64,000 nt of DNA from Gaiellales bacterium (GCA_035473255.1 DATIOK010000068.1:11858-75857); one strand, 5' to 3'; positions 19,179 through 61,755 are shown, counted from the stretch's first letter. The notes: generated from the letters alone by a model not told the origin. Program-made: numbers and translations.

Positions 19179-19190
19179 GACCGCCGCGTG

Positions 19191-21637: not shown

Positions 21638-21639
21638 CC

Positions 21640-42402: not shown

Positions 42403-43149
42403 ATGACGGACTCCCCCCGCGTCGGCGGCACGGCCGACGAGCACCTGCTGCAGCGCCACGACGCGACCTTTCTGCACACCGACCCGTGGCGGATCCTGCG
42501 CATCACCGGGGAGTTCGTGGAGGGCTTCGACCAGCTCGCCGACGTCGGCGCGGCCGTTGCCGTGTTCGGATCAGCCCGCACGCCCGCGGACGATCCCGCA
42601 TACGTCGCCGCCCGCGAGACCGCCCGGCTGCTGGTGGCCGACGGCTTCGGTGTCATCACCGGCGGCGGCCCCGGCATCATGGAGGCCGCCAACATGGGTG
42701 CGGCGGAAGCCGGCGGCGTGTCGATCGGCTGCAACATCGAGCTGCCCCACGAACAGCACGGCAACAGCTACGCGAACCTGTCGATGGAGTTCCGCTACTT
42801 CTTCGTGCGAAAGACCATGTTCGTGAAGTACTCCGAGGCGTTCGTGGTATTCCCGGGCGGCTTCGGGACGCTCGACGAGCTGTTCGAGGCGGTCACACTC
42901 GTGCAGACCGGCAAGATCCACCGCTTCCCGGTGGTGCTGTACGACAGCGCGTATTGGAATGGCCTGCTGGAGTGGCTGCGCGAGCGGGTCGTCGGGGAGG
43001 CCAAGTTGAGAGAGGCCGAGCTGGAGCTGCTGCAGGTAGTGGACACCCCCGCCGAGGCGGCTGGGATCGTGCGCGACTGCACGTCCGGGGCGTGCGGCCA
43101 CGAGCATCACCCGCCGGCTGAGACGCCCACGCGCACCGCCCCCACGTAG
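42403..43149 (+). CDS. LOG family protein (TIGR00730-type nucleotide 5'-monophosphate nucleosidase)
   Basis: VITGGGPGIMEAAN and PGGFGTLDELFE (PGGxGTxxE) are present. The C-terminus overlaps the convergent NlpC/P60 gene by 43 nt. Confidence 0.85.
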   Translation: MTDSPRVGGTADEHLLQRHDATFLHTDPWRILRITGEFVEGFDQLADVGAAVAVFGSARTPADDPAYVAARETARLLVADGFGVITGGGPGIMEAANMGAAEAGGVSIGCNIELPHEQHGNSYANLSMEFRYFFVRKTMFVKYSEAFVVFPGGFGTLDELFEAVTLVQTGKIHRFPVVLYDSAYWNGLLEWLRERVVGEAKLREAELELLQVVDTPAEAAGIVRDCTSGACGHEHHPPAETPTRTAPT

Positions 43150-44060: not shown

Positions 44061-46261
44061 CCCACACCCCTGTCTGACTCGAACGCGTCGAACAGGAGCA
44101 CGCCTCTGGCGCCGGGCTGCAGGCCGCCCGACGGTCCCAGCATCACCCGCTCCAGGCGCCGCTCCCCGTTTCCGAGGTCGCCGACCGAGCCGGCAGGAGT
44201 GCCGTCGACCGCCAGCGTCACCGAACCGGGGCTGCCCGCCTGCCAGGTCAGATCGAGCACGTGGACGTCGTCGCTGACCCGCGTCCAGCGCGTCGACTCC
44301 CACCCCGATATCCCAATAGCGGAGGCGCGCAGGAAGACCCTGTGCACGACCGTCCGGTAGCGCAGCAGGAACACCCGGCCGCCACCGTCCCATCCGGCGA
44401 ACACGACCCAGGCCCGGCCGCCGGTCGATGTGCCGGACGGATCGAAGCTGAACCGGGCGTGGTAGCCGGACTCTGCGGCCGGCGACTGGTCGACGACGCC
44501 CGTGACAGCGCTGCCGGTCACCTTGGCGCGCAATCCATAGCCGTCACCGTCGAGCGCGGCCCACGGAGTGACCGCGAGCATGCCCGCGCCGCGGCGACCG
44601 GACCAGGCGCTGAGGTCGCCGCTGGCGAAGCTGTCCGTGAACAGGCCGGGGGAGTCCACGGTGACGGTGACCGTCTGCACCGCCCCCCAGTTGCCGGCGG
44701 AGTCGCGGGCGCGCACCGAGATCGTGTGCGTGCCGGGTGAGAGCGTGCCGACGTCCGCCGTCACGTCCTCGACCGGGGAGTCGAAGGCGCCGTCGGCCGG
44801 CAGAGCGGCGGTGGCCAGTCCCTGGCCGGGGTCGGCGCCGTCGAACCACTCAGCCCCGGTCACCGCCGACAGCCCATCGGTGGCGGTCGCGCCCAGCGTG
44901 GTTCCGGTAACCGACAACCCGCTCACGACCGGGCCGGCGACATCTCCGCCCAGGGACGCGATTGCCGCCGGCACGTCGATGCGCCCATCTCCGAACACGT
45001 TGTCGGGGCCGGGATCGCCCAGATCGGCTGCGCTCCGGCGCAGCGCAGTCTCCTGCTCGGCGGCGGTCAGACTCGGGTCGGCGCTCAGCAGCAGCGCCAG
45101 TGCGCCGGCGGCATGCGGGGCTGCCAGTGAGGTGCCTGTGGCGGTGGTGGTGCCGACCGGATCCAGCACGGGGACGTCCACGCCGGGAGCGGTCACGGCC
45201 GGATACGTGACCGCGGTGCCGCCGCAGGTGGTCGGCCCGCGGCTCGAGTCGGCTGCGATCTGATCGCCGGCGGTGGTGGCACCTACGGCCAGGGCTCCCG
45301 GATTGTTGGCCGGGCTGTAGTCGCTGGGCGATCCCGGGCCGGAGTTGCCGGCGGCGAACACGGGCAGGATCCGTGCCGCGCGCAGGGCGGTGATGTCGGG
45401 TTCGAACTCGAGGTTGCACCCCGCGGTCATCGACCAGGAGTTGTTCACGACCTGCGGGGCGTCAGTGGTGGCGGGGTCGTGGTCGGGGTCGAGCAGCCAC
45501 TGGAAGGCGAGGTGGATGGCGCTGGTGGTGGCCTGGCCGCGGTCGTCGAAGATGCGGGCCGCGATCCAGCGGCTGGCCGGCGCCACCCCCAGCGCCGTCC
45601 CGGTGGCACCGCCGGCCACCATGACGCTCATCGTATGGGTGCCGTGACCGGAAAGGTCGACCGGGGCTGCCGTGTGCTGCCCGTAGGGGTCAAACCAGCT
45701 GTTGGACCCGCCCCGCCATGCGGCCGCCAGCTCGGGGATGGTCATGTCCACGCCCGTGTCGAGCGAGGCAACCACCACGCCCTGCCCGCGGTCACCGAGC
45801 GCCCAGGCCCCGGGCGCCCCGATCGCGGTCAGGTTCGAGGCGGCGGCGCCGCCGCCCGCGTCTCCGGCGGCGTGCACGGTGATCGCGTCGTCATGCACCG
45901 AGGCGACGTCGGGACGGGCGGCCAGCTTCGCGATGACGTCGTCGCTGGCGGTCACAGCGATCGCGTTCACGATCCACAGTGGCCGCACGGCCGATACCGT
46001 GCCGGCTCGGCGGCCGGCCGCCAGCTGGTCGAGGATCGGCTGCTGCGACGCGTCGGCGGTGCTCTGCAGTGCCTGCTCCAACGCGCGCAGGCGCGCGCCT
46101 CGGGCGCGAGGCAGCCCACCGAAGTCGGCACGCTCGGTGAGCGTCACGATCACGCGGCGCATTGGCACCGGGCCGGCGGCGGCATTCCGGGCGGTGCCGG
46201 CGCCGGCCGCAGCGGTTCCCAGCAATGCCGCGGTCACCGCGAGCACGACCACGCGTCTCAC
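44057..46261 (-). CDS. secreted S8 (subtilisin-family) serine protease with one Ig-like repeat and a C-terminal jelly-roll/LamG-like module
   Basis: GTG 46261..46259 gives VRRVVVLAVTAALLGTAAAGAG. The catalytic triad is VASLDTGVD, HGTHTMSVMVAG and GTSLAAPHAAG. The Ig-like repeat is at 44657..44857 and the C-terminal module at 44060..44656; both are paralogous to parts of 48581..51973. Confidence 0.85.
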   Translation of the reverse strand: MRRVVVLAVTAALLGTAAAGAGTARNAAAGPVPMRRVIVTLTERADFGGLPRARGARLRALEQALQSTADASQQPILDQLAAGRRAGTVSAVRPLWIVNAIAVTASDDVIAKLAARPDVASVHDDAITVHAAGDAGGGAAASNLTAIGAPGAWALGDRGQGVVVASLDTGVDMTIPELAAAWRGGSNSWFDPYGQHTAAPVDLSGHGTHTMSVMVAGGATGTALGVAPASRWIAARIFDDRGQATTSAIHLAFQWLLDPDHDPATTDAPQVVNNSWSMTAGCNLEFEPDITALRAARILPVFAAGNSGPGSPSDYSPANNPGALAVGATTAGDQIAADSSRGPTTCGGTAVTYPAVTAPGVDVPVLDPVGTTTATGTSLAAPHAAGALALLLSADPSLTAAEQETALRRSAADLGDPGPDNVFGDGRIDVPAAIASLGGDVAGPVVSGLSVTGTTLGATATDGLSAVTGAEWFDGADPGQGLATAALPADGAFDSPVEDVTADVGTLSPGTHTISVRARDSAGNWGAVQTVTVTVDSPGLFTDSFASGDLSAWSGRRGAGMLAVTPWAALDGDGYGLRAKVTGSAVTGVVDQSPAAESGYHARFSFDPSGTSTGGRAWVVFAGWDGGGRVFLLRYRTVVHRVFLRASAIGISGWESTRWTRVSDDVHVLDLTWQAGSPGSVTLAVDGTPAGSVGDLGNGERRLERVMLGPSGGLQPGARGVLLFDAFESDRGVG

Positions 46262-46266
46262 GGCAG

Positions 46267-48081
46267 TCACTCCGAGGCGGGCAGTTCGGCCGGCGCCAGG
46301 GCCGGCGGCTGCCCGAGCATCGGCCTCAGCGCCCGCCACAGCAACGCGGCTGCGGCCAGCGCGAGCAGCACCTCGGCCAGCAGCGTCAGCAGCGGTGCCA
46401 GTGGCCGGTCGGACACCCAGGGCCGCCGCGGCGCCGGCCCGCCGGGGTGGTCCACGGGCCAGCGCAGCAAGGCGGTGGCGTCGGGCACACCCGCCCGGTG
46501 AACGACCACCTGCAGCGGCATCACGCCGGAGCGCGACAGGCGATGCGCCGGCACTCGCCAGATGCCGCCTGTCCGGACGGCGTCGACGATGTCACCCGCT
46601 GCCCGCCCGTCGGGCCAGCGGATGCCGACCCCGGTGACCGGGCCGGGCGCCGGCAGCCGCGTCTCGAGCACCTTCACCGATGCGAAGTTCGCACCCGGCC
46701 GGTTCGGCTTTACGGACACGCCCAGGATCAGGTCGTCGACCGCTGCGTAGCGGAGCGCCGGCGACCGGGCGACCTTCGCGGCGGGAGCGTACTGCGGCTC
46801 CCGCGCGGGGGCCGAGGCGGTCAGCATCGCCGCCGGCACCAGCACGGCCAACGCGATCGTTGTCTCCAGCGTCACCGCCAGCCGCAGCCTGCGGCCGCCG
46901 GCGCGGCGGCGCAGCAGCAGCAGGTTGGTCAGTCCCAGGACACCGACCGCCAGGAACAGCGCCGACTTCACCACCAGCGTGCGGCCGTAGACGCTCTGCA
47001 GCAGGGCGTCGGCGGAAGCGACCTGCACGCCGGCGCTGTACAGCCCGGTGATGGCGATCAGCGCCACGCAGCCCGCGGCGAGGTTCCCGAAGCAGCGCAG
47101 GACGATGCGCCCCGACCGGGTGTCACGGACGAGCAGCGGCGCCAGGCAGATCGCCGCCGCGGCCAGGCCTCCTGTCCAGACCGCGGCGGTCAGCAGGTGC
47201 GCGGTCATTGCCAGCACGGCCACGCTGAGGTCGCCGCGTGCCGCCGGAGCATGGCCGGTCAGCGCCAGCGTGCCGCACAGCGCCACCGCCATCGCAATCC
47301 CCGGCCATCGCAACCACGATCGCCGCCCGGCCCGCGGCAGCGCCACCAGCGTCGCCAGCAGGCCGATCAGCAGCAGCTCGCGCAGCGCCCAGCGCGGGCC
47401 ATAGGTCGTGCCGGTGAGCAGCGTCCAGCCGGCCGGCGCAAGCGCCCGGGGGAATGACGATGCCTGCACCAGCAGCAGCGCAATCCCGGTCACGAGTGCG
47501 GCCGCAGCCGCCAGCAGCGCCATCATCCGCAGCCGCCGCTCCAGCCCATCCAGGCCGCGGGCGCCGCGACCGGCGGCGGCCGGCAGCACCAGCAGCATCA
47601 TCGCCAGCGGGCCCAGCAGCGCGGCCACGGCGGCGAAGTCCAGCCAGCGCACCAGCACGCTGCCGGTGGCGGGCGTCGGGTCCGGAGGCAGCCCGGCTGA
47701 GGGCGCCACGTGGACGTTCCCGACGCCGAAGACCGTCTCCCCGCGGGTCGCGTGCAGGTCGTCGGTGGAGACGGTCTGCCAGACGATCCGGTAGACCCCG
47801 CTGGGCAGTTTCGGCAGGGCCAGGGTGAGGACGGCACTGTCGTGCCCGGGCACCACCCGGGCCGGGATCACACGACCCGATGCGCCGACCAGCTCGACCC
47901 GGCTGAGACCGGGGCTGACCTGTTCGCTGAACAGCAGTCGCATGGTGGGCGGCGAATGGGCGAGCGAGCTGCCGTCGGCCGGGTCAGAGCGCACCAGGTA
48001 GGCATGGGCGGACGCGGCTGCGGGCAGCGCCAGTGCGACCGCCGCGGCCACGGCCGCGACCGCTGCGCCGCGACGGATCAT
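46267..48081 (-). CDS. copper resistance protein CopC-CopD fusion (YcnJ-like) with extra C-terminal domain and TM
   Basis: ATG 48081..48079. The signal ends ...ASA|HAYLVRSDPADGSSL, giving the CopC N-terminal His. LPSGVYRIVWQTVSTDDLHATRGE is the CopC fold. Eight or more TMs follow (CopD), then a beta-rich segment and a final TM. ATGA overlap with the upstream gene. Confidence 0.8.
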   Translation of the reverse strand: MIRRGAAVAAVAAAVALALPAAASAHAYLVRSDPADGSSLAHSPPTMRLLFSEQVSPGLSRVELVGASGRVIPARVVPGHDSAVLTLALPKLPSGVYRIVWQTVSTDDLHATRGETVFGVGNVHVAPSAGLPPDPTPATGSVLVRWLDFAAVAALLGPLAMMLLVLPAAAGRGARGLDGLERRLRMMALLAAAAALVTGIALLLVQASSFPRALAPAGWTLLTGTTYGPRWALRELLLIGLLATLVALPRAGRRSWLRWPGIAMAVALCGTLALTGHAPAARGDLSVAVLAMTAHLLTAAVWTGGLAAAAICLAPLLVRDTRSGRIVLRCFGNLAAGCVALIAITGLYSAGVQVASADALLQSVYGRTLVVKSALFLAVGVLGLTNLLLLRRRAGGRRLRLAVTLETTIALAVLVPAAMLTASAPAREPQYAPAAKVARSPALRYAAVDDLILGVSVKPNRPGANFASVKVLETRLPAPGPVTGVGIRWPDGRAAGDIVDAVRTGGIWRVPAHRLSRSGVMPLQVVVHRAGVPDATALLRWPVDHPGGPAPRRPWVSDRPLAPLLTLLAEVLLALAAAALLWRALRPMLGQPPALAPAELPASE

Positions 48082-48584
48082 CGCACGACGACGTGGCGCA
48101 GCCACAGCGAGCCCATCTTCACCGACACCTTGTCCCCGGTGCGCACGGTGCCACCGTCGTTGCGGTACAGCAGGTAGTACTGGCGTCCCGCCTGCATGTG
48201 GTGCGGGAACATGGACATCGCCAGGCCGCCCAGCGTGCGCCCGGTGCGCTCGTCCACCAGCACCGGGAACGTCGACCGTGTGTGGCCGAAGGCGACGGCG
48301 CGGTCGGGATCGAGCGCGATGTAGCGCACGTCGACCATGCCGCCTGCGGCGGTCACGGCGATCTGCGAGACGCGGATGCCGTATCGGAGCTCAACCGTCG
48401 GGTTGTGCGGAACCGGCGGGTAGACGGTGGGGGCCTCTGCGCCGCGGCTGTCGTGGGCAACCAGAAACCCACCCACGACAACCGCGGTCAGGAGGGGCGC
48501 CAGCAACTGCCGGCGCATGAGGCCGCGCACCCCCGGGCGAGGGGTGCGCGGTGCGACCGGGGCGGGAGCGGTTTCAGCCGTCAT
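48078..48584 (-). CDS. small membrane-anchored protein of unknown function with Met/His motif
   Basis: 168 aa with one TM (LLAPLLTAVVVGGFLV), then a beta-rich domain containing AMSMFPHHMQ (48195..48218). ATGA overlaps at both ends support translation. No family recognised. Confidence 0.55.
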   Translation of the reverse strand: MTAETAPAPVAPRTPRPGVRGLMRRQLLAPLLTAVVVGGFLVAHDSRGAEAPTVYPPVPHNPTVELRYGIRVSQIAVTAAGGMVDVRYIALDPDRAVAFGHTRSTFPVLVDERTGRTLGGLAMSMFPHHMQAGRQYYLLYRNDGGTVRTGDKVSVKMGSLWLRHVVVR

Positions 48585-51500
48585 GGCCCGATCGTGCCTC
48601 CTCTGGTGGAGACGAAGTCGTCGAAGTAGAGGACGCCCGAGATCTTGGCGGCCAGCGTGTCCGACGGGCCCAGCTTCACCTTGTCGATTCGCTGAGAGCC
48701 GTTCACGAGCGAGCCCAGCGTCTGCTTCAGCGCTCCGTCCACCAGCAGCTTCAGAGATCCGCTGCCGGCTCCTGCCTTCCAGTCGACCTCGACCGCATGG
48801 GCGGCGTTCGAGATCGTGTACCAGGAGGTGTTTTTCCAGCTGCCGCCCGAGAGGGCGCCCGCGCGGATCCGGTAGACACCGGCACCGGTGCGGCTGTACT
48901 GGACGCGCGTGACCGTGCCGCCGCCGCCCTTGATGGCTGCGAGGATGGTGGGCGACGAGCTGCCGGGCAGCGCGCCGTGCGGATTGAAGTAGAACCGTGC
49001 GCTGTACTGCGACTCCAGCGCCGGCGAGTTGTCAAGTACGAACCGCGACGCGGTTCCCGACTGGGACGCCTGCAGGCCGTACTGGTCAGCCCCGTGCAGC
49101 TTGGCGGCAGCGGTCGCCGAGATCGCCGATCCACCCGTCGCCGACGACCAGGCACTCAGGTTGCCGGCCGCGAACGAGTTGGCGAACACGACCGGGTTGG
49201 AGATGGTGACCGTCACCTGTGCGACCGGTCCCCAGTTTCCCGCGGCATCGAGCGCGCGCACCGACAGTGTGTGGGTTCCGTTGGACAGGGTCGGCAGCGT
49301 CGCCCGGATGGCCTCGCTGTTCGAGTTGAAGCTGCCGTCCGTGGCGGTCATCGGCGTTGCCAGTCCCTGACCGGGGTCGGCTCCGTCGTACCATTCAGCG
49401 CCCACGATGACGCTGCCCGGGGTCGGTCCGGGCAAGCCCGGATCCGTGGCGGTGGCGGTCAGCGTGCCGGCCGCGACCGCCGGGCCGGCCGTGATGGCCG
49501 GGCCTGTCTTGTCCACGATCAGCGTGGCCGTGACCATCGCGCCCCAGTTACCGGCCGCATCCCTGGCGTGTGACGAAAACACGTGCGGGCCCTGGCTGAG
49601 CGCATTGATCTGGGCCAGCGGGAAGCGCATGTAGGCCGTCTCGGTGGGCGAGTCGAACGCGCCGTCGGTGGGCAGCAGCACCAGCCCGCTGCCGTTAGCG
49701 CCGACGGTATCGAGGAAGCCCTCGGCCCGCGTGATCGGCGAGTTGACGCCGCCCACCACCGGGTCGGCGAAGTCCGCCTCGACCTGCAGCTCGAACGAGT
49801 TGGGATCGATCGAGATGGTGCCGTTGTTGGGCGACGGGCCGATGCTCGCATTGCTGCCCGTCGGGCCGTTCTTGTCGACGACCAGCGGTGTCGAGGCAAA
49901 CGCACCCCAGTTGTTGAAGGCGTCGCGGGAGCGCACGTAGATCGTGTGTGCACCCACACCCAGCCCGGAGACGGTGGCCTGCGGGATCGTGCCCGTGATC
50001 TCGGAGATCGCGTTGGTGGGCGTCGTCACGGTCATGGCGGTGGGGGCGGCGCCGGTGCTGTCGATCCGGAACTCGGCGGCGCTGATGTTCTGGTCGCCGT
50101 TCAGCAGATCGGTGGCCGTGCCTGTGACGGCCACGCCGCTGGTGCCGTTGGTGTACGCGGGCGTCAGGGCCAGCGCGATGCTGTCCGGGCCGATCTCGTC
50201 GACGAAGAACGTCTCAGCGTCGAACCCGCCCCACGTGCCCGCGCTGTCGCGGGCGTGGATGAACACCGTGTGCGGGCCGGCGGCAAGCGGCGGTGAGCTG
50301 GGATCGATGGTGGCGCCGGTGACGACCGTCGAGGCCGGCGAACCGATCGTGATCGCCGTCCCGGAACCGTCGGCGCCCAGCGTGTCGACGAAGTACTCGG
50401 CGTCGGTCACGGTCTTGGGCGAGCCGGCGCTGGCCGGCGTGCAGGCGGAGAAGGTGGCCGAGATGGCGACCGGGGTGGTGCCGTCCGTCACGTCCGGCGT
50501 GGCGCTGCCGGAGACCGGCGATGGCCCGGCGCAGGTGTCGAGCGTGTCGGGGGTCTGGATGAACGTCATCATGCCGCCCGCGGTGACCGGTGCAGAGGCG
50601 GAGCTGGACCAGCCAGCTCCGGCCAGGTCGAGGTGCTGCCCCTGGTCGCTGACCGGGTAGGAGACAGCGCTGCCGGTGCCGCTCGGCATCGTCACCAGCG
50701 TGTCCATGGTGGCACCCGCGCCGACGGTTTCTGCGACCGCCTGATACGAGTACGTCAGTGGCAGCGCATCGTTGGCGATCACGCGCTGGTGCAGGCCGAG
50801 CGTGCTCATGGAGTGCTCGTCCAGCCCGGCGTTGACGTAGCGCAGCAGCACCGTGTCGCCACGCGCGGCGTTGATCACGTCGGTGGACGGGATGCTGCCG
50901 CCGTCGTGGTAGGTGCGCCCGTTGATCAGCCAGTAGCTGGCCTTGTAGCCCTTCATGTCGAAGCCGGACGGGTCGGCGGCGTTGTTGAGGGCGGGATCGA
51001 TCTCGCCCAGCACCAGCAGCGCCTCGGCGTCGAACGCCGTCGACGTGCCGTAGGCGCCGCTCTGCCCGCCGGCCAGGTTGGCCGGGCCCAGCGGGCTGAC
51101 CACGCCGCTGCCGTCGGAGCCGCCGGCCAGCGTCACCGTCACCAGCGCCGAAGCGGCCGGGTCGGCATTGATCGCAGCCATCACCTCGCTCGCCGTCGAC
51201 ACCGGCGCGCCGGTGCCGTCGGTGGCAAGGCTGACGGAGATGTCGGTTCCCGTCACCGACACGCTCAGCGGCGAGTTGGAGGCGGCGGGATCGACGTAGG
51301 TGATGCTGATCGCGTTGCCATCGACGCCGGAGTCGCCGGCCGTGAAGACGAGGTCGGCGTTGGGGCCGATGGCCGTGGTCAGCGTTGCGGCCGACAGGCC
51401 GGGCGGGCGCACGACCAGCGCGCCGTAGAGACCCATCGCCACCTGGTGGCGGGCGTTCTCGGTCGGCCCGGCCTCGTAGATGGTGGTGCCGGGGGTGGTT

Positions 51501-51973
51501 GCGGTGAACGTGTAGGTGCTTGAGTTGCCCTGCGTGACACCGGTGGTGTCGGGCACCAGAGGCGCCTCGGGAAGCATCAGCGACAACGCCTCGTTACCGC
51601 CGTTGACGGCGTTGGGGAGGGCGTTGTGCATGGTGATCGTGACCTGGTCGCCCTGGTCGACGACCAGCGTCGGGCCGCCCGGCTTGACCACGGAGTCGCC
51701 GGAGCTGGGCACGAAGCCCCACGTGGGCAGGGTGACGCCGCCGGGCAGGTCGGTGGTACCGGCCTTTGCCCACAGATCACAGGCCGGGTGTCCCGGGTTG
51801 GAGACGTCGCACGTGGTCGCGGGCAGCGCCGAAGCGATCGCCGCATCCGCGTGTACGACCTGCCGGTTGACGGGCGATCCCGCCGGAGCGGCAGCGGCCG
51901 CTGCCGGCAGCGTCACGGCTGCCAGCAGCGCGAGCGCCAGCGCTCGCTGAGTTCGCGTGAACCTGCGCGTCAC
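48581..51973 (-). CDS. two-domain multicopper-oxidase-like protein lacking copper ligands ('MCO-C'), fused to four Ig-like repeats and a C-terminal LamG-like module
   Basis: GTG 51973..51971. The signal is MTRRFTRTQRALALALLAAVTLPAAAAAA. The cupredoxin strings are paralogous to the two genes upstream (GTTIYEAGP...AMGLYGALVVRP; YKASYWLINGRTY) but contain no HxH or HCH. Repeats with ...H.....RA.D..GNWG lie at 49199..50407. The tail at 48584..49198 is paralogous to the S8 tail. Confidence 0.85.
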   Translation of the reverse strand: MTRRFTRTQRALALALLAAVTLPAAAAAAPAGSPVNRQVVHADAAIASALPATTCDVSNPGHPACDLWAKAGTTDLPGGVTLPTWGFVPSSGDSVVKPGGPTLVVDQGDQVTITMHNALPNAVNGGNEALSLMLPEAPLVPDTTGVTQGNSSTYTFTATTPGTTIYEAGPTENARHQVAMGLYGALVVRPPGLSAATLTTAIGPNADLVFTAGDSGVDGNAISITYVDPAASNSPLSVSVTGTDISVSLATDGTGAPVSTASEVMAAINADPAASALVTVTLAGGSDGSGVVSPLGPANLAGGQSGAYGTSTAFDAEALLVLGEIDPALNNAADPSGFDMKGYKASYWLINGRTYHDGGSIPSTDVINAARGDTVLLRYVNAGLDEHSMSTLGLHQRVIANDALPLTYSYQAVAETVGAGATMDTLVTMPSGTGSAVSYPVSDQGQHLDLAGAGWSSSASAPVTAGGMMTFIQTPDTLDTCAGPSPVSGSATPDVTDGTTPVAISATFSACTPASAGSPKTVTDAEYFVDTLGADGSGTAITIGSPASTVVTGATIDPSSPPLAAGPHTVFIHARDSAGTWGGFDAETFFVDEIGPDSIALALTPAYTNGTSGVAVTGTATDLLNGDQNISAAEFRIDSTGAAPTAMTVTTPTNAISEITGTIPQATVSGLGVGAHTIYVRSRDAFNNWGAFASTPLVVDKNGPTGSNASIGPSPNNGTISIDPNSFELQVEADFADPVVGGVNSPITRAEGFLDTVGANGSGLVLLPTDGAFDSPTETAYMRFPLAQINALSQGPHVFSSHARDAAGNWGAMVTATLIVDKTGPAITAGPAVAAGTLTATATDPGLPGPTPGSVIVGAEWYDGADPGQGLATPMTATDGSFNSNSEAIRATLPTLSNGTHTLSVRALDAAGNWGPVAQVTVTISNPVVFANSFAAGNLSAWSSATGGSAISATAAAKLHGADQYGLQASQSGTASRFVLDNSPALESQYSARFYFNPHGALPGSSSPTILAAIKGGGGTVTRVQYSRTGAGVYRIRAGALSGGSWKNTSWYTISNAAHAVEVDWKAGAGSGSLKLLVDGALKQTLGSLVNGSQRIDKVKLGPSDTLAAKISGVLYFDDFVSTRGGTIGP

Positions 51974-51974
51974 C

Positions 51975-53291
51975 TCAGCACCCCCCTGGTGGATCGACCC
52001 GCATCAAGGTCAGCATGCCGCCACCTGCGATCCCGAAGTTCGTGATCTGGTAAAGGGCGTGGCTATGCATCATGAAGTAGTACTCACCGCATTCGTTGTA
52101 ACTGGTCACGCCGACGGGCAGCGGGCCCTTGTAGCCGAGGTAGGGGCTGCCGCTGTACCAGGTCGCGTTGTCCTTGAACAGCAGGTTGGCGAGCGGCGGG
52201 ATGGCCACCGGGATCGGCTTGGTGTCCGGGTTCCATCCGTCCACGTCCGTCCACGTGTAGGTGGCGTCGGCGGTCTGCCCGGGGCCCACGGCCACCGTGT
52301 ACTTCTCGTAGCTCAGGTCCTGCCCAGCCGGCCCCTGCAGCGCCTGGCCGTCGCGTGCGATCACGCGGCCGTGGTTGCCGTGGGGATGGAACGGGTAGGT
52401 GACCGGCCCGGTGCTCAGGTAACGCACCAGCGAGGGCTTGTTGAACGGGTTGCCGGGATCGCTCGAGTGCGGCTGGAACTCGACCAGCGAGCTGTAGGGC
52501 TGGGTCGGCAGCCAGGCCGCGTTGTTCGGCGCGATCGTGTCGGGGAAGCTGCGACCGTTCACGAACCAGTAGTGCGGGTGGTAGGCCTTCATGTCGAAGG
52601 GCTGGTTCCGCTCGACGGCGCGGTGCAGGGCCGGATCCGACTGCGACAGCAGCATCACGTACTCGGTGTCGGGGTTGAAGGCCGAGTCGGAGCGGTTGTA
52701 GGCGAATGCCGCTCCCATCGAGGGCCGCACCACCATCGCGCCCACCAGTCCCATGTCCAGCTGCTTGTCCTGGTCGGTGCCGCTCTCGTAGATGTAGGTG
52801 CCGGGCTGGCCGGCGGTGAACGTGTAGCTGACGCTGCCGCCGTTGGCCTTGGCGGTCTGGGCCAGCGAGACGAGGTTCCCGCCCTGGTATACCGGGGAGA
52901 CCGGCACCCCGCTGGAGGTGACATTGTCTTGCCCCGGAAACACGATCGAGGTGTCCTCGGGGAGGGTGTTCTTGAGCACGATCGTGACGGTCTGCCCCTG
53001 GTTCAGGCACAGCACCGGGCCCGGGTACTGGAAGCCGCCGCCAGTCGGCGCGAAGCTCCACATGTAGACCAGGTTGTCGTCGGGGGTGGAGATCTGGCCG
53101 TCCCGTGCCGTCAGCTTGAAAACGTTGTTCGAGTCCGGATGGCTGCAGACGATGCCGGTCGCGGGCACGCTCACCCCGGACGCCTTGGGCGCACCGGTGG
53201 TCTCGATCCCGGCGATCAGGGCCAGCCCCAGCAGCGGCGCGATCCACCAGCGGAGCAGTCTCTTGCGTGCGTGTGTGAGAGTCTTCGTCAC
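51975..53291 (-). CDS. two-domain multicopper oxidase paralog ('MCO-B') with trinuclear-cluster-type His motifs only in domain 2
   Basis: GTG 53291..53289 is preceded by GAGG. The N-terminal hydrophobic segment is WWIAPLLGLALIAGI. Domain 1 has no HxH. Domain 2 has FHPHGNHG (52371..52388) and MMHSH (52059..52067). The family-typical GTYIYESG...DMGLVGAMVVRP is present. Confidence 0.8.
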   Translation of the reverse strand: MTKTLTHARKRLLRWWIAPLLGLALIAGIETTGAPKASGVSVPATGIVCSHPDSNNVFKLTARDGQISTPDDNLVYMWSFAPTGGGFQYPGPVLCLNQGQTVTIVLKNTLPEDTSIVFPGQDNVTSSGVPVSPVYQGGNLVSLAQTAKANGGSVSYTFTAGQPGTYIYESGTDQDKQLDMGLVGAMVVRPSMGAAFAYNRSDSAFNPDTEYVMLLSQSDPALHRAVERNQPFDMKAYHPHYWFVNGRSFPDTIAPNNAAWLPTQPYSSLVEFQPHSSDPGNPFNKPSLVRYLSTGPVTYPFHPHGNHGRVIARDGQALQGPAGQDLSYEKYTVAVGPGQTADATYTWTDVDGWNPDTKPIPVAIPPLANLLFKDNATWYSGSPYLGYKGPLPVGVTSYNECGEYYFMMHSHALYQITNFGIAGGGMLTLMRVDPPGGC

Positions 53292-53298
53292 GTCTGCC

Positions 53299-54636
53299 TC
53301 ACGCGTTCGGGGTGGTTTGGGCCGGGAGCGTTCCGGCCGGGTACGCGCGCAGCTCTGTGCGCAGCCCGGCATGGGCGCCTGATTTCGTCAGATAGCCGTC
53401 GGCGTAGTTGCGGTCGAACAGCGGGTATACGTCGTACGGCGAGCCGCTCGGCTCGGGCATGGTGATGATCACGTCGGTCGCCTCCCCGGGGCCGATGTCG
53501 AGCGTCTCGGCCAGGTAGCTGGTGTCGGTCCCGTCGCGGCCGCGCATCAGCGTGGCGTCCTTGCCGACCACCTTCATGGGCAGTCCCGGCAGGGTGATCG
53601 AGTGCTGCTGGTAGCCGATGTTGACGACCCGCACCAGCACGCGCTCGCCGGCGTTGCCCTTGATCAGGGCCGAGATCGGCTGGTATGCCAGCCGCGGATC
53701 GGCGAACCCGATCGGGTTGCCGTTGGCGTCGTAGCCGCTGCTGGCCTGGAGCGTGTCCGGGTAGGAGCGACCGTTGAAGAACCAGGCGTCGGCCTTGAAC
53801 TCCGACCAGTCCGGCTGCTGGATGTGCGCGTCCTCCCAGTGCGACTGCAGGTACCACTCGGTGATCAGCAGCGCGTACTCGCGGTCGTAGGCGGTCGAGC
53901 CGTCGCCGTCGTTGTAGGCGTAGGGGCCGGGGTGGCCGGCGATCGGCGCCTTGTTCTGGGCCGGCCGCACGAACACCACGCCGGTCATTCCCATCTGCAC
54001 GTGCTCGACGTCCTCGAAGTGGCAGTGGTAGATGTAGGTGCCGGGGTTGTGCGGCTTGTAGAAGTAGGGGAAGGTGCGGCCGATCGGAACCGAGATCGAC
54101 ATCTCCGGTATGCCGTCGAACAGCGACAGCGCGTTGCGGAAGCCATGCCAGTGGATGGTGTGGCCGTCGGTCAGGTCGGGGCGCTGCTGGAACCCGAGGT
54201 TGCTGAGCGAGATCGTGACGTCGTCGTTCTCGTCGACGTAGATCAGCGGCGCGCTCGCCTGGATCTTGCCCTTCTGGGCGCGGATCGCCGCCACGTCGGT
54301 GGCGATCAGCTGCGGGTTGCCGGTGGCGGTGCGGGCCGCCTGCACCATACTGGTCACGTCCCGGAAGCCGAACAGGTAGGTGGTGCGGTTGTTCGGGGCG
54401 TAGCCGTCGGGGAAGTACTTGGTCGGGTTCCTGGGATCGGGCAGCGAAATCCAGCCGTCGGTCGCGATCAGGTTGATCTCACCCTTGACGCCGGTGTAGC
54501 CGTTGCCGGCGGCGCGGGCGCTACCGCCCGTGCGGAGGATGCCCATGCCCCCGGCCGCCAGCACGGCGCCGGCTCCGGCTCCGGCCTTGAGCGCTGCGCG
54601 CCGCGTGAATCGGCGGTCGTTCCAGTTGCCTGTCAT
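53299..54636 (-). CDS. two-domain multicopper oxidase paralog ('MCO-A') with Tat signal, type-1 Cu site and half of the trinuclear ligands in domain 1
   Basis: Tat-like NDRRFTRRAALKAGAGAGAVLAAG. Domain 1 has HTIHWHG (54145..54162) and YHCHFEDVEHVQMGM (53986..54027). Domain 2 has no HxH motif. ATGA overlap with the upstream giant gene. Confidence 0.85.
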   Translation of the reverse strand: MTGNWNDRRFTRRAALKAGAGAGAVLAAGGMGILRTGGSARAAGNGYTGVKGEINLIATDGWISLPDPRNPTKYFPDGYAPNNRTTYLFGFRDVTSMVQAARTATGNPQLIATDVAAIRAQKGKIQASAPLIYVDENDDVTISLSNLGFQQRPDLTDGHTIHWHGFRNALSLFDGIPEMSISVPIGRTFPYFYKPHNPGTYIYHCHFEDVEHVQMGMTGVVFVRPAQNKAPIAGHPGPYAYNDGDGSTAYDREYALLITEWYLQSHWEDAHIQQPDWSEFKADAWFFNGRSYPDTLQASSGYDANGNPIGFADPRLAYQPISALIKGNAGERVLVRVVNIGYQQHSITLPGLPMKVVGKDATLMRGRDGTDTSYLAETLDIGPGEATDVIITMPEPSGSPYDVYPLFDRNYADGYLTKSGAHAGLRTELRAYPAGTLPAQTTPNA

Positions 54637-57600
54637 CGCTCGTCAGCCCCCAGGTCCTTCCCGGACGACGGCCGGGTTTGGTTGTCGATGTCGAAGGTCG
54701 GCGCGTTCACGCCCGACTGCGAGTTGACCGCCAGGTTCAGCGCCTGGGATCCGGCCGCGAGGTGGTAGTTGCCCGCCAGCAGCTCGGCCACCGACTGGGC
54801 GATCGTGATGGCGGCGATGAAGTGCGGGTCGCCGCGCCACGGGAACGGCGAGATCAGCGTGTCGTACGGATTCACAACGATGCTGCCGGGAGCTCCCGCC
54901 ACCAGCGTGTTGGTGCCGTCGTTTGCGGCCGGCACCGCGCCCGCCACCGGCTGGCTGGGGCCGTAGCCCTGCAGCAGCGTGTGGTGCGGGTGCAACGGGC
55001 CGAGGCCGTCGGCGACGCCCATGTCCCAGTAGCGGATCGGTGCCGGGTCGCCGGTCTGGCCGATGCCGGACACGGTGCCCGAGCTGAGATCCCAGGCGCC
55101 GGCGCGGTTGTCGTCGAACACGTTGTTGAACATCAGCGGGTCGCTGTAGTGGGCGTGGGAGGCGGGCAGCTTGGCCTGCAGCAGCGTGCTGTTGCCGGTG
55201 TCCGATAGGCCCGCCGGAGCCGGTTGGCCGTTGCTGGTGGCTGCCGTCGCCGTGGTGATGTTCTTCATCACCGTGTTGTTGTAGAAGCGCGTGTTGGTGG
55301 CGTCGTCGAGGGCCACGCCGCCGCCCTCGTGGGTCGACACGTTGTTCACGATCATGTTGTTGAAGATCGAGATCTGCGAGTCGTTGAGGGTGCCGTTGGC
55401 GTTCGCGCCGCTGGTCATCAGCAGCCGCAGCCCGCCGCCGTCGTCGTTGGCCACGTTCTCCTGGATCAGGTTGTTGAAGACGCTGACCGAGCCGGAGCCG
55501 CGCGTCAGCGTGGTCTTGGGATTGGCGGGCAGCTCGCCGGCGATCATCACGCCGGCGCCCTCGTCGTACGAGCCGTTCAGGTAGATCTGGTTGTCGTGGA
55601 TCTGCCCGCCGGGGCTGAGGCCGAAGTGGCTGATGCCGCCGCCGTACTCCGACGAGAAGTTGCCGCAGACGTCGTTGAAGCTGAGGTCGTAGTTGTTGGC
55701 ACCGGTGAACAGCGCCACCGCGCCGGCCAGGTTGGAGCCGCCGTTGTGGAGGATCCGGTTGTGCGAGATCAGCAGGTTGTTGTTGTTGTTCGAGCCGATG
55801 TTGGGAGTGCCGACGCGGATCGCGCCGCCGTAGGAACCGCCGTTACCGTCGATCACGTTGTTGGTGACGTGCATGAAGTGGGCCTGCGCGTTCACGTACA
55901 CGCCGCCGCCCTGCGTCACCGCGGCCTCCTGGGTGGGATCGCCGACCGGGTTGGGCACCGGGCCGCCGCCGTTGTCGAACAGGCTGCCGGGGAAGTCGAT
56001 CTGGTCGCCGCCCATCAGCGTGAACCCGTCGATCGATCCGGGGAAGGCGCTCGTGAACTGGCCGGTCGTGCGCGGGTACACCGACACCACCGGGCCCTCG
56101 TAGATGTTCTGGTTGCCGGTCCGGGTGAGGCCGCTGACCAGCGTCGTCCAGTCGGTGGCGTAGTTGTTGTCACCGTCGGCAGCGAAGCCGCCCTGGGTGT
56201 AGAAGTACCGGCCGTTCAGGATCGAGCCGGGCACTGCGTGCTGCGTGCCGCCGGCGGTGTAGATGCCGCCCGGGCCGACGCCCTGGAGCTTGATCGGCTT
56301 GTTCATGACCACGTTTTCGAAGTAGCTGCCGAGCGGGTTGCCGTTGCTCGGCGTATCCGGGTACACGACCACCAGTCGCCTGCCGGTGCCGGGGTTGGCG
56401 GCGTTGATCGCGTCCTGCACCGTGGCCGGTGTGGTGGCCTGGGTGTCGAACTGCTTGCCGGGACCGACCTCGATCACGGTCGGGGTGTAGTTCCCGCCCA
56501 GGATGTGGTACGTGATTCCGTCGATGGTCGACTGTGCGCCGGCTCCCGCTGTCCTGATGATGAGCTGATGCGGCGCGCCGATCCGCGAGGCCGCGGACGA
56601 GGCCGTCGACGACGACCGGGACGGCATCTGCGCCACGATCTGGTTGTCCGTCCAGGAGGTGATCGAGCCGGAGGTGCTGCCGGTAACCGCGGAGGTGATC
56701 GACACGCCGTCCAGCAGCACGTTTCCGGTCGCGTTGCCGAAGTTCTTGCCGGTGATCGTGATCGTGCGCTGAGCAGTGGTGGCGTTGTTCACCTGGTACG
56801 GGCGGCTGACCGAGAACATCTGCGGTATGGCCGTGGGCAACGTGCAGTCGGCCGGGTGCAGCGTCTGCGTGCCCGGGCCTTCGACCAGCTGTGCGATCGG
56901 CACCGGCGCCAGGTCGGCAGGCAGCGTCAGGTTCGGCCACAGCTGGAAGTTGGTGGCAGCCGTCCGGTAGTTCGGGTTGAAGTCGGCGTTGGGATGCTCG
57001 GGCGTGCCGGGGTCGTTTGCCACGAACCGATACACGTTCGGGCAGGGCCCGGCCGGCAGCGGGCAGTTGTACGAGCTGACCGACGGCAGGATGTCCTCGA
57101 ACACGCCGTTGGCGTCGGTGTGCATGGTGTCGACCAGGCGGCCGGTGTAGTCGTACAGGCCGACCGGCATGTTCGGGATGCCCAGCTTCTCGCCGTAGAA
57201 CAGCTCCTTGGGATTGCTGGAGAGCGTCAGGTCGTCGGTCACCAGGCCGTGGAAGCGCCCGGGCACCGGCACGTCGGTGAAGAAGTGGAAGTTGGGCGTC
57301 GCCGAGTACTGATCCTTGAGGGTGACCAGCTGGGTGTCGCAGATCGGCTTCTGCTCGCCCTCGTACGGGCTGCCGCCGATGTCCGCGAACCCGGGGTTCG
57401 CAGTCGGCGTCGAGGCCGGCACCGTGACGGTGCCGCCGTCGAGGCTGACCGGGCCGTAGCTGTCCTGCCCAGAGCCGGCCACGTCCACCGTGTGCAGGGC
57501 GCCGGCGCACGGATAGGGAGGCTCCTGTGGCGTGTAGGAGTCACCGGTGGCGATGTTGATGTCCTCCTCGCGCACCGGCTTGTAGACGGGCTGGTGCGTG

Positions 57601-59900
57601 ATCGGGTCGTTCGGCACCTCGACCCGCACCAGGTAGTCGCCCGGCCCCAGGGGGTCCTGGCAGTCGTCCGGGTTCCCGCTGAAGGTGCTGTTGCCGTTGG
57701 CATCGGGTGTGCACTGGGTGCCGAACCCGTAGTTGCCGTTGACGAGTGAGAACTGATCGCTCTGGTTGCCCCAGAATCCGACCTGGTTCTGCATGGCGAA
57801 GCCCTCGAGGCAGTCCTTGTTGGTGGCGTTCACGGACGGGAAGTCGGGCATGAAGTCCCAGGACACGGGGTCGCCGTTGACGTCGCGGGACGTGCAGCCG
57901 GTGGGCCGCTGCCACTGCTCCGTGGTGTACTGGTTCAGCTTGGGGCCGAGCTGGTAGGAGCCGTCGGCCGCCTTCAGGTACTGCCCCGGGTTGTTCGGGT
58001 CGGGGACGGGGGCGTAGAGGTCGACTTTGAGGCCGGAGATGCCGCCCTCGTAGTCCTCGGTGGCCATGAAGCGCGGGTCGAGCTCGTTGCGGGTCGTTTC
58101 GTACACGACCTCGCCCACGATGCCGCCGTTGGTGCCGCGGTCATAGGGCCTGATGCCCCAGTCGATGCGGTTGGACAGGCCGACCAGGTGGAAGGTGTTG
58201 AGATCGACGCCGGCGCCCAGGATGGTGGTGGGGCTGGGCTGGTTGTCGGTCTGATAGGTGACGCCCGTCGTGTAGTACCGCGGGTCGTACATCTCCTCGA
58301 CCACCCACTGGCCCAGCGGATAGGCCTCGCGGAAGATGTAGTGGCCGTTCGAGTCGGTCGTGTAGGAGGCGGTGCCCTGATCCTGCAGCGAGTTGTCGCG
58401 CGACTTCAGGGTGACCGTCAGGTTGGGGACGCCCGGCTCGCCGGGATCTTGCTTGCCGTTGCTGTTGTAGTCGTTGAAGACCGTGCCCTTGACGATGCCG
58501 AACCAGTGCGCCAGATACAGCGTTTTCATCTTGGTCAGCTGGCCGTTTCGCACCGTCGCCTGGTTGGTCTCCACCAGGTAGTCCTGGTTCTCGTCCCAGG
58601 TCACGAGCTCGTAGTCGCCGTTCGGCACGTGCTTGATGTCGAAGCGGCCCTGCGTGTCGGCGCGCTTCACGTAGACGGCCGTGTCGCCGGCGTCGATCGA
58701 GACCAGCGACACCCAGCCGTCGCTGACCGGCGGGTCGATGGCGTTGCCGGCCTCGCCGCCGAACACCAGGCCCTTGGCGGGCGGGGTGTAGGCGCGGATG
58801 CCGTTCAGCTGGCCGGTGATCTCACCCGTGACGTTGGTGTTGGTGAGCGTGTTCTGCTCGGCCACGAAGCCCGCGATCGTCTCGGGCACGCCCTCGCCGC
58901 CGCGGATCAGCTCGCCGTCGAACCCGTTCGACCCCTCCTGGTGCCAGGTGTCCCAGTCGTGCCCGCCTTCGAGGGTCGTCGTCTGCAGCCAGTGGCTCGA
59001 TGCATTGGGACCCGAGGTGGGCGGGGTGACGGTGACCGTGTAGCGGTTGGAGCCGAGGTTGCCGATCTCGATCAGGCCAGTCGAGTCGGACAGGCACTTG
59101 CCGCCGATCGTGTCGATCACCGGCTTGCCGTTGGCATCCATCTCGTAGGGGCCGACGAAGGGGTCGCTGCTCGGGTTCGGATCGCTGGGATCCTTCTTGT
59201 AGATCGTGCACAGCGGGTTGCCGTACCAGTCGGTCGTGACCTCGGCCAGCACGTCGTTGATGTGTCCGACGAAGTTGCTGAGGCCGGGTTCTGCGGGAAT
59301 GTCCCACTGGCCGTTGGTAGCGGTGTCGTTGAAGACCTGCACGCGCATCGTGGCCAGCGGCAGGTCGTACGCGTCGACCTGCACCGTCACGTTCAGGTCG
59401 CCGCTCGCGGGGACCGTGAAGTGGGTGCCGTCGATCTTCGCGGTCTGGGCGCCGGTGGCGTCGTAGGCCTGCACCGAGATCACGTACTTGCCCGGGTCGA
59501 GCGCGATGCCGTTGCTCGGGCCCATCACGGTCTCGTCGCCCTGCGTGACGATCTGGTTGACCCCAGCCGTGCCGCCCGGCGTGGAGTGGATCGAGGGCCA
59601 GTTGCACCCGTCCGGGTAGCTCGGGTTGCTGCCGCCCGCGCCGCTTGGCAGGCAGGCGGACTGCGGCTGTGAAGGATCGCCGGCGTCGTCGCGGACGATC
59701 AGATACTTGTAGTGGTCGACGGCCTGGGGTGCCGGGCCTGCGGTGACGACGTTGAGCGTGACGCCTCCGGCGGCAGCGGCGCTGGGTGCGCCGGACAGCA
59801 GCAGGCAGAGCGCGACGGCGGCAGCGCAGACGGCCGCACCGGTGGCGAACCTCCCGCGGGTGACGCGGGTCGTGCGCTGATGCCGCAATGCTGTTCTCAC
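54633..59900 (-). CDS. 1755-aa secreted protein: multiple SdrD-B/Cna-B-like (carboxypeptidase-regulatory-like) domains, IPT/TIG-like domain, C-terminal right-handed parallel beta-helix
   Basis: GTG 59900..59898 is preceded by GAGGAGGAG at a 4-nt spacing. The signal is ...GAAVCAAAVALCLLLSGAPSAAAA. An SdrD-B-like unit is VKGTVFNDYNSNGKQDPGEPGVPNLTVTL...TDSNGHYIF. The IPT-like segment is ITITGKNFGNATGNVLLDG. The PbH1-type repeats are ISHNRILHNGG, FNNLIQENVANDDGGG and FNNMIVNNVSTHEGGG. Confidence 0.85.
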   Translation of the reverse strand: MRTALRHQRTTRVTRGRFATGAAVCAAAVALCLLLSGAPSAAAAGGVTLNVVTAGPAPQAVDHYKYLIVRDDAGDPSQPQSACLPSGAGGSNPSYPDGCNWPSIHSTPGGTAGVNQIVTQGDETVMGPSNGIALDPGKYVISVQAYDATGAQTAKIDGTHFTVPASGDLNVTVQVDAYDLPLATMRVQVFNDTATNGQWDIPAEPGLSNFVGHINDVLAEVTTDWYGNPLCTIYKKDPSDPNPSSDPFVGPYEMDANGKPVIDTIGGKCLSDSTGLIEIGNLGSNRYTVTVTPPTSGPNASSHWLQTTTLEGGHDWDTWHQEGSNGFDGELIRGGEGVPETIAGFVAEQNTLTNTNVTGEITGQLNGIRAYTPPAKGLVFGGEAGNAIDPPVSDGWVSLVSIDAGDTAVYVKRADTQGRFDIKHVPNGDYELVTWDENQDYLVETNQATVRNGQLTKMKTLYLAHWFGIVKGTVFNDYNSNGKQDPGEPGVPNLTVTLKSRDNSLQDQGTASYTTDSNGHYIFREAYPLGQWVVEEMYDPRYYTTGVTYQTDNQPSPTTILGAGVDLNTFHLVGLSNRIDWGIRPYDRGTNGGIVGEVVYETTRNELDPRFMATEDYEGGISGLKVDLYAPVPDPNNPGQYLKAADGSYQLGPKLNQYTTEQWQRPTGCTSRDVNGDPVSWDFMPDFPSVNATNKDCLEGFAMQNQVGFWGNQSDQFSLVNGNYGFGTQCTPDANGNSTFSGNPDDCQDPLGPGDYLVRVEVPNDPITHQPVYKPVREEDINIATGDSYTPQEPPYPCAGALHTVDVAGSGQDSYGPVSLDGGTVTVPASTPTANPGFADIGGSPYEGEQKPICDTQLVTLKDQYSATPNFHFFTDVPVPGRFHGLVTDDLTLSSNPKELFYGEKLGIPNMPVGLYDYTGRLVDTMHTDANGVFEDILPSVSSYNCPLPAGPCPNVYRFVANDPGTPEHPNADFNPNYRTAATNFQLWPNLTLPADLAPVPIAQLVEGPGTQTLHPADCTLPTAIPQMFSVSRPYQVNNATTAQRTITITGKNFGNATGNVLLDGVSITSAVTGSTSGSITSWTDNQIVAQMPSRSSSTASSAASRIGAPHQLIIRTAGAGAQSTIDGITYHILGGNYTPTVIEVGPGKQFDTQATTPATVQDAINAANPGTGRRLVVVYPDTPSNGNPLGSYFENVVMNKPIKLQGVGPGGIYTAGGTQHAVPGSILNGRYFYTQGGFAADGDNNYATDWTTLVSGLTRTGNQNIYEGPVVSVYPRTTGQFTSAFPGSIDGFTLMGGDQIDFPGSLFDNGGGPVPNPVGDPTQEAAVTQGGGVYVNAQAHFMHVTNNVIDGNGGSYGGAIRVGTPNIGSNNNNNLLISHNRILHNGGSNLAGAVALFTGANNYDLSFNDVCGNFSSEYGGGISHFGLSPGGQIHDNQIYLNGSYDEGAGVMIAGELPANPKTTLTRGSGSVSVFNNLIQENVANDDGGGLRLLMTSGANANGTLNDSQISIFNNMIVNNVSTHEGGGVALDDATNTRFYNNTVMKNITTATAATSNGQPAPAGLSDTGNSTLLQAKLPASHAHYSDPLMFNNVFDDNRAGAWDLSSGTVSGIGQTGDPAPIRYWDMGVADGLGPLHPHHTLLQGYGPSQPVAGAVPAANDGTNTLVAGAPGSIVVNPYDTLISPFPWRGDPHFIAAITIAQSVAELLAGNYHLAAGSQALNLAVNSQSGVNAPTFDIDNQTRPSSGKDLGADER

Positions 59901-59936
59901 CGAGCTCCTCCTCGTCACAGGCAATCGAGCCTGGTG

Positions 59937-61726: not shown

Positions 61727-61755
61727 TTGCGGAGCCCCCCCAACGTTCTGGCGCA

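Follow-up and report, generated by a model that had tools for sequence, protein, structure and literature searches.

Complementary copper-ligand halves on adjacent genes: a candidate heteromeric two-domain multicopper oxidase linked to a large secreted protein

Three adjacent cupredoxin genes and their copper ligands

A 64,000-nucleotide stretch of DNA from a Gaiellales bacterium (GCA_035473255.1 DATIOK010000068.1:11858-75857), referred to here as the window, contains a minus-strand block of tightly packed, co-directional genes in sequence of about 70% GC. Three neighbouring genes of this block, MCO-A, MCO-B and MCO-C (A, B and C below), encode paralogous proteins with two cupredoxin domains each, and they follow directly on the gene for a 1777-residue secreted protein, named BIG. 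The ligands of the type-1 (T1) copper and of the trinuclear cluster (TNC) of a multicopper oxidase (MCO) are divided between A and B, with none in C, and this division is conserved across several bacterial phyla. A (53299-54636, minus strand, as are all genes of the block) has 445 amino acids and a twin-arginine translocation (TAT) signal, B (51975-53291) has 438 amino acids counted from its GTG start and a Sec-type signal, and C (48581-51973), with 1130 amino acids, consists of a ligand-free two-cupredoxin unit followed by a tail. An open reading frame (ORF) check returned all three genes at the positions and on the strand assigned to them by a first-pass annotation, which had been made from the sequence alone. 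BIG (54633-59966) matches the Pfam SdrD-B and prealbumin-like Ig repeats and a TIG domain, with a weak match to a C-terminal right-handed beta-helix.

The junctions between these genes are very short. The TGA of BIG overlaps the ATG of A (as ATGA), the GTG start of B lies 7 nt past the stop of A and is preceded by GAGG, the GTG start of C lies 1 nt past the stop of B, and the TGA of C is overlapped by the ATG of a fifth gene, which encodes the 168-residue membrane-anchored protein P168 (48078-48584). These overlaps and gaps of 1-7 nt indicate translational coupling.

All three proteins belong to the MCO superfamily by their Pfam Cu-oxidase domains, and the T1 ligands and the His-Cys-His triad of the superfamily are found in A only. 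In the Pfam check that the first-pass annotation had proposed, A, B and C each scored above the curated Cu-oxidase_3 cutoff, A alone also scored above those of Cu-oxidase_2 and Cu-oxidase, and C has an additional match to Big_13. The shared strings GT.IYE.G....MGL.GA.VVRP and W..NGR, on which the paralogy had been based, are present in the paralogs. Current annotation of these proteins reads 'multicopper oxidase domain-containing protein' or 'FtsP/CotA-like', and none of the NCBIfam models is specific to A, B, C or BIG. Scores against the copper nitrite reductase (NirK) equivalog TIGR02376 are 37.6, 22.3 and 28.7 for a cutoff of 296.3, and the HxH motifs are of the MCO type.

The T1 ligands are confined to domain 1 of A (H159, C205, H212 and M217), which also holds four TNC histidines (H162, H164, H204 and H206) and, alone among the domains, the triad H204-C205-H206 that links the T1 site to the cluster. 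These residues lie in two motifs. The first, H159-T-I-H162-W-H164 (54145-54162), comprises a T1 His and the first HxH pair of the TNC, while the second, Y-H204-C205-H206-FEDVE-H212-VQ-M215-G-M217 (53986-54027), supplies the second pair, the T1 Cys, a T1 His and the axial Met. No HxH occurs in domain 2 of A or elsewhere later in the chain. In B, domain 1 reads YIYESGT at the place of YIYHCHFE in A and has no ligands there, and domain 2 carries four TNC-type histidines in the motifs HPHGNH (H329 and H331; 52371-52388) and HSH (H436 and H438; 52059-52067), numbered according to the longest ORF of B, which extends to 53372. The two cupredoxin domains of C have neither HxH nor HCH. The eight-histidine set of a TNC is complete only for A plus B, with two HxH motifs in each and none in C, and in no single one of the three chains are the four HxH motifs of an MCO, or of each chain of a homo-oligomeric MCO, found together. 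The first-pass annotation had described this distribution, including the bare domain 2 of A, the bare domain 1 of B and the lack of either ligand set in C, and it holds in every part. The annotation had also pointed to an extra HPH in the string YHPHYW of B. This string is real in the window, but it is not conserved, with Arg for the second His in 78 of 88 orthologues, and YHPHYW was ruled out as a ligand pair given YxPRYW in most orthologues.

A further peculiarity of B is a specific insertion of about 70 amino acids (52160-52370; residues ~335-405) just ahead of HSH, which contains the invariant motif (W/F)YSGSPYLG. The insertion may become ordered only against A, or may lid the active site.

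The best PDB sequence matches of A are the blue copper oxidase of Nitrosomonas europaea (3g5w) and the metagenomic mgLAC (2zwn), the two solved type C two-domain oxidases. The motifs of A match HTIHWHG and YHCH-x5-H...M of these enzymes column for column, with the same x5 spacing as in HCHVNVNEH of 3g5w, and its domain-2 site reads HSITLPGL as against HAIHTHGH in 3g5w. A profile of B orthologues aligns to 3g5w across both domains, placing HPHGNH on HTHGH and HSH on HDH, and 2zwn gives the same picture with HSHGH and HDH. Because of these alignments, the B histidines are placed at the domain-2 HxH positions of type C enzymes, which bears out the earlier assignment of these residues to TNC motifs. 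Type C two-domain MCOs are defined by a T1 site in the N-terminal cupredoxin domain (PMC13151041), a feature present in A only. In the type A/B/C scheme, the domain-2 HxH pairs are the half of the TNC given by the neighbouring protomer (PMC13151041, with the textbook MCO scheme), and the HxH motifs of 3g5w were assigned as TNC ligands from general MCO knowledge together with this definition. Each type C protomer provides both domain-1 and domain-2 histidines; in the orthologue alignments, the domain-2 pairs are missing from A and the domain-1 pairs from B.

The AlphaFold2 model of A, built from a 67-sequence alignment, reached a pLDDT of 80 and a pTM of 0.82, and its top Foldseek match is 3g5w_A (TMt 0.68). 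Both this model and that of a natural B-C fusion described below match MCO and NirK structures.

Conservation of the split, gene order and natural fusions

A genome scan with A identified eleven loci, in Anaerolineae, Actinomycetota, Acidimicrobiales and five Bacillota, among them Desulfallas and Thermincola. A metagenome scan with the B profile identified more than 472 relatives, from which 80 loci were kept. The resulting orthologue alignments contain 74 A, 88 B and 62 C sequences from lineages that include Actinomycetota, Chloroflexota and Bacillota. H159, H162 and H164 of the first A motif are present in 67 of the 74 sequences, the rest being gaps from truncated contigs, and H204, C205, H206, H212 and M217 of the second motif in 72. 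In B, H329 and H331 are both present in 87 of 88 orthologues, and H436 and H438 in 86 of 88. All twelve ligand positions are thus invariant apart from truncated contigs (67-72/74 for A, 86-87/88 for B). The complementary histidines never occur at the domain-2 positions examined in A (the columns of the first HxH pair of B; 0/74 syntenic A sequences), nor at the domain-1 positions of the 88 B orthologues, and no conserved ligand set was found in the 62 C orthologues. This pattern is far beyond chance.

No orthologous cluster with all eight TNC ligands in one chain was found among the 74 syntenic A orthologues. Similarly, 207 of 219 A-like database proteins with HCH lack a later HxH, and the remaining ones are frameshift chimeras, carry a single stray HxH, or belong to a separate tandem family. 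The split is also seen in a divergent lineage, represented by locus L094, that is only about 31% identical. In a neighbour-joining tree, A, B and C form three monophyletic orthogroups, each with all lineages and with B as the sister of C, which places the three-way split before the module spread. The B family comprises 245 clusters at 50% identity (E <= 1e-30).

Two single-chain relatives, P0186 and P0188, consist of two tandem two-domain units and a plastocyanin-like domain. In P0186, which bears the JGI name 'manganese oxidase', unit 1 has a T1 site and eight TNC histidines and unit 2 only the domain-2 pairs. P0188 combines an A-like unit 1, devoid of domain-2 pairs, with a unit 2 that carries them. 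It is possible that these proteins are evolutionary intermediates or an analogue of a fused A-B protein. Many B orthologues (P0123-P0143, 660-790 aa) also have a C-terminal extension of 200-350 amino acids past the conserved ...DPPGGC, which is unrelated to C.

Gene order was counted in those loci whose contig extends far enough. BIG lies upstream of A in 44/44 loci, A is followed by B in 58/58, and a C-like gene lies downstream of B in 54/55. Three cases flagged in the A-B count were inspected, and the flag arose only from overlapping stop-to-stop ORFs. The co-occurrence that the first-pass annotation had proposed to examine thus takes the form of essentially absolute synteny, with the ligand split kept across phyla. 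BIG is 28-44% identical across phyla, and the BIG-type proteins linked to the module range from 1500 to 2900 amino acids.

Natural fusions join C to two different partners. Fusions of B and C, which come from independent samples of JGI, ENA and Logan, fall into at least nine clusters at 90% identity, with chains of 866-1177 amino acids (including P0243 and P0241). Each begins with a signal peptide and a full B in which both HxH pairs are intact; a linker containing a small beta-domain then leads to a C unit that lacks a signal peptide of its own. At two loci (L095 and L096), the fusion replaces both genes in the order BIG-A-[B-C]-P168-CopCD-S8, and no separate C is present. At L094, an A-like and a B-like gene are followed by a gene for a protein of more than 2900 amino acids (13726-22031, plus strand), of which the first ~450 residues are a C-like ligand-free unit and the remainder matches BIG. 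The B-like protein of this locus has kept HEH and HSH as well as WYGGTPYLG, and its domain 1 is ligand-free. C is therefore physically joined to a different partner in each of two lineages, to B in the one and to BIG in the other. Apparent fusions of A to B (P0121, P0122 and P0158) and of BIG to A (P0144 and P0187) were rejected as frameshift or read-through artefacts because they contain out-of-frame Arg/Pro-rich stretches or retain internal signal peptides, and P0194 looks like a read-through as well.

In the window, the two-cupredoxin unit of C spans approximately residues 53-478, and is followed by a tail of 650 amino acids made up of Ig-like repeats and a C-terminal module. Its cupredoxin domains are separated by an insertion of about 110 amino acids (~51068-51397) that is confined to L012, a near-identical contig, and L044, and most C orthologues run straight from ...VVRP to ...AYG.

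Neighbouring genes, export and copper supply

Downstream of C, P168 is conserved by position in the loci outside Bacillota, and it has no Pfam or NCBIfam match. The window protein contains a Met/His-rich stretch, MSMFPHHM; a role as a Met/His copper chaperone was dropped, as no His, Met or Cys is invariant among 30 orthologues. The next gene (46267-48105) encodes a CopC-CopD fusion, a copper-handling membrane protein resembling YcnJ (Pfam CopC 8e-18, CopD 3e-13; NCBIfam copper_CopD and copper_CopC matches below cutoff), and it is followed by a gene for a secreted S8 (subtilase) peptidase (44057-46339; Pfam Peptidase_S8, 1e-39). The positions of both are conserved. The last ~274 amino acids of C (48599-49414) and of the S8 peptidase (44066-44869) are 47% identical (E 3e-66) and comprise an Ig-like repeat and a module of about 190 amino acids without a Pfam match, which looks like a common docking or targeting module.

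Directly upstream of BIG lies the gene for a histidine kinase with a membrane-embedded sensor (59995-61089; Pfam HisKA and HATPase_c), preceded by that for an OmpR-type response regulator (61058-61756; Pfam Response_reg and Trans_reg_C). This two-component system, which plausibly controls expression of the cluster, also adjoins it in L095, and the cluster including both CopC-CopD and the two-component system recurs in Micromonospora auratinigra and a Gaiellales genome. The unit exceeds the three cupredoxin genes, as it also includes BIG and, in the lineage of the window, P168, CopC-CopD, the S8 protease and the two-component system.

Elsewhere in the window, an ORF downstream of the S8 peptidase gene (43107-44393, minus strand) would encode, judging by its translation, two peptidoglycan-binding repeats and then an NlpC/P60 endopeptidase (DCSGLVQYVY...). 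A tRNA-Met (CAT) gene at 5104-5176 (minus strand) is the sole Rfam/ARAGORN match within the 64 kb. A plasmid search of the window returned only an irrelevant 309-nt match to Ralstonia.

Export signals differ among the subunits. An RRx## TAT-like motif is present in 59/62 A, 25/83 B and 6/58 C orthologues, and B and C have mostly plain hydrophobic signal peptides. In the window, A would leave the cell folded via TAT, and B and C would leave unfolded via Sec, the route of BIG as well, making the module extracytoplasmic, and a cluster shared by A and B would therefore be completed outside the cytoplasm. According to a 2026 study, the loading of extracytoplasmic enzymes with copper often relies on YcnJ, a CopC-CopD protein, as the importer (PMC13344008), and the adjacent CopC-CopD protein plausibly supplies or handles copper for the module.

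In the five Bacillota loci (L006-L010), the module takes a minimal form and, in these strict anaerobes, is apparently intracellular or spore-associated. None of the four proteins BIG, A, B and C has a signal peptide, C is tail-free with only about 310 amino acids, and B lacks four cysteines conserved elsewhere (C76, C122, C428 and C465). No CopCD, P168 or S8 genes were found near these five loci. The change of compartment of all four proteins together fits a single assembly. A spore-coat role in Bacillota would be a guess, and a search for sporulation-type promoters upstream of the Bacillota clusters returned scattered CATA-like matches not above chance.

A putative asymmetric oxidase and its relation to known systems

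Taken together, these observations suggest that A, B and C are the three two-cupredoxin-domain subunits of one asymmetric MCO, arranged as a pseudo-threefold six-domain ring with a single active interface. The first-pass annotation had put forward such a heteromeric ring, and the checks made on its refuting conditions all spoke for it. Domain 1 of A would provide the T1 copper, where electrons from the substrate enter, and half of the TNC by way of the His-Cys-His triad, and domain 2 of B would provide the remaining four TNC histidines, so that O2 would be reduced to water at the sole A(D1)/B(D2) interface. The ligand-free C would close the ring and serve as a tether. The ring would then belong to a four-protein module with BIG, to which C would be attached, covalently by fusion in L094; in the lineage of the window, C has an Ig-like tail of its own in place of this fusion. 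If its domains make contact in the direction seen in two-domain MCOs and in ceruloplasmin, the ring order should be B, then A, then C. A and B are likely to share a single trinuclear site. The specific 1:1:1 ring tethered to BIG is favoured more modestly, and the reading as a whole, in which a tethered A-B-C ring works as an O2-reducing oxidase, is considered probable. As to the substrate, a guess at low confidence would be either a metal ion or some constituent that belongs to, or sits on, BIG or the cell surface.

Several observations weigh against this proposal. The mixture of TAT and Sec export demands that a buried cluster be assembled outside the cell, which is unusual. The occurrence of the module in strict anaerobes, where it has no signal peptides, is odd for an enzyme that reduces O2. 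No genuine A-B fusion was found in a search for natural fusions with a concatenated A+B+C query. Furthermore, the AlphaFold2 model of the B-C fusion P0243 is of moderate quality (pLDDT 68, pTM 0.61): domain 1 of B, the inserted beta-domain and both C domains are confident, and the B-specific insertion and the HSH strand are below a pLDDT of 50. The best Foldseek matches of this model are the six-domain factor V, factor VIII and ceruloplasmin chains, at a TMq of 0.43-0.46 compared with 0.26-0.28 for single two-domain oxidases or NirK, and these matches lend weak support to a placement of B and C roughly like two of the three units in a six-domain ring; the rmsd to the six-domain proteins, however, is about 15 A over all aligned columns.

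This loose superposition also fits an arrangement in which A and B share the trinuclear site without a 1:1:1 ring, for example as B-A-B or as A-B only, with C as an accessory tether or adaptor outside. The ligands dictate only the complementarity of A and B, and the tails of C are long and variable and C is fused to other partners, consistent with such a role. Nevertheless, C keeps a full two-cupredoxin unit and the family core motifs in every lineage, including the 310-residue form of Bacillota, it is present in all but one of the 55 loci counted and forms the sister orthogroup of B, and known two-domain MCOs all close a three-unit ring (PMC13151041). This arrangement is accordingly regarded as unlikely, although it is the best placed of the alternatives.

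The chemistry proposed for the A-B-C ring could also be different. If the composite A-B site is real, the path from the T1 copper to the interface might serve nitrite, another small oxidant, or hydroxylamine-type chemistry in place of O2 reduction. Such an activity would suit strict anaerobes and the signal-peptide-free modules of Thermincola and Desulfallas; the closest folds include copper nitrite reductases, and a two-domain MCO of Nitrosopumilus oxidises NH2OH (PMC11761707). Against this, the eight histidines of a full trinuclear cluster are kept, compared with the three-His type-2 site of NirK, and the score against the NCBIfam Cu_nitrite_red model lies far below the cutoff (37.6 vs 296.3); an enzyme that does not reduce O2 is considered quite improbable. 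Least probable is that the proteins act separately, A as a blue-copper electron carrier with vestigial cluster histidines and B and C as copper-free structural cupredoxin folds like SufI or FtsP. Copper-free MCO-fold proteins do exist, SufI is among the weak PDB matches, and C is clearly ligand-free. Mere remnants of ligands, however, would not be kept unchanged in different phyla, even at ~31% identity, with the complementary halves always absent, and strict synteny, translational coupling and fusions speak against it as well.

The architecture proposed for A, B and C would be new, although its parts are ordinary MCO parts. The closest family is that of the type C two-domain MCOs, whose sequences and folds match A and B best. 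Like A, B and C, these enzymes have two cupredoxin domains per chain, with the T1 site and the HxH and HCH-x5-H-x4-M motifs in domain 1 as in A and two HxH pairs in domain 2 as in B, and each TNC is shared by two adjacent chains, where domain 1 of the first meets domain 2 of the second. They are, however, homotrimers with both halves in each chain and three sites, whereas here the halves are on separate products, the third product has none, and at most one site could form per ring. To our knowledge, every MCO described so far carries all four HxH motifs in one polypeptide. A literature search found no heteromeric or heterotrimeric two-domain MCO and no account of this gene cluster.

In its proposed working, the A-B-C ring comes closest to ceruloplasmin, whose three two-cupredoxin units form a pseudo-threefold ring with only one TNC, located at an interface between units. 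Ceruloplasmin and factors V and VIII are nevertheless eukaryotic proteins encoded by single genes, become heteromers only by proteolysis, and have their T1 sites in even-numbered domains. In contrast, A, B and C are three separate bacterial ORFs with their own start codons and signal peptides, of which some relatives fuse only B and C, and their one T1 site lies in the first domain, giving the polarity of type C. Factor VIIIa, the activated form, is built as a heterotrimer from the units A1, A2 and A3-C1-C2, the last of which has extra anchoring domains. These domains resemble the tail of C, and factor VIIIa is the closest quaternary analogue.

Two microbial systems invite comparison as well. 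The Mnx complex of Bacillus sp. PL-12, in which MnxG is combined with MnxE3F3, is a bacterial MCO of the spore surface that is functional only as a multi-protein assembly, and MnxG (9bxa_A) is a distant fold match of the B-C model. MnxG differs in being a single six-domain chain that holds all ligands. MnxE and MnxF are small non-cupredoxin proteins, and we know of no ligand splitting between subunits in this complex. No small MnxE/MnxF-like ORFs were noted beside A-B-C, where no comparison with MnxE/MnxF sequences was made. The second system is the two-domain MCO Nmar_1354 of Nitrosopumilus maritimus (PDB 9cck), a fold match of A that has been described as an alpha-alpha-alpha' 'heterotrimer' (PMC11761707). 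This 'heterotrimer', however, is a proteolytic variant of a single gene product, with one copy lacking the appended cupredoxin domain, and its three chains have full ligand sets.

Two-domain MCOs are taught as homotrimers, and ceruloplasmin, hephaestin and factors V and VIII are thought to have arisen from such trimers when the gene was triplicated and redundant copper sites were lost. In the proteins described here, gene duplication and the complementary loss of ligands, with the genes left unfused, seem to have produced the same asymmetry of a single active interface among three, and the relatives that fuse two of the three units represent intermediate forms. A broader scenario, which is evenly balanced at present, would see BIG-A-B-C as an ancient multi-phylum module in which an oxidase trimer was subfunctionalised into a catalytic T1 half, a cluster-completing half and an inert tether and became a fixed appendage of BIG; bacteria would in this way have arrived independently at the asymmetric, single-site, six-domain architecture that ceruloplasmin and factor VIII display, and the module would act on BIG, on a surface polymer or metal, or, in Bacillota, on something in the spore or cytoplasm. 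Nor is the family a rare one, given its more than 472 metagenomic relatives, and A or B expressed alone, as in laccase screens, would probably yield inactive protein. The invariant link to BIG points to an unstudied cell-surface process. If the proposed architecture is true, these genes would constitute a natural, genetically separable system for the assembly of a trinuclear cluster across a protein-protein interface, bearing on how metallation takes place outside the cell when subunits follow different export routes and on why one site per ring suffices.

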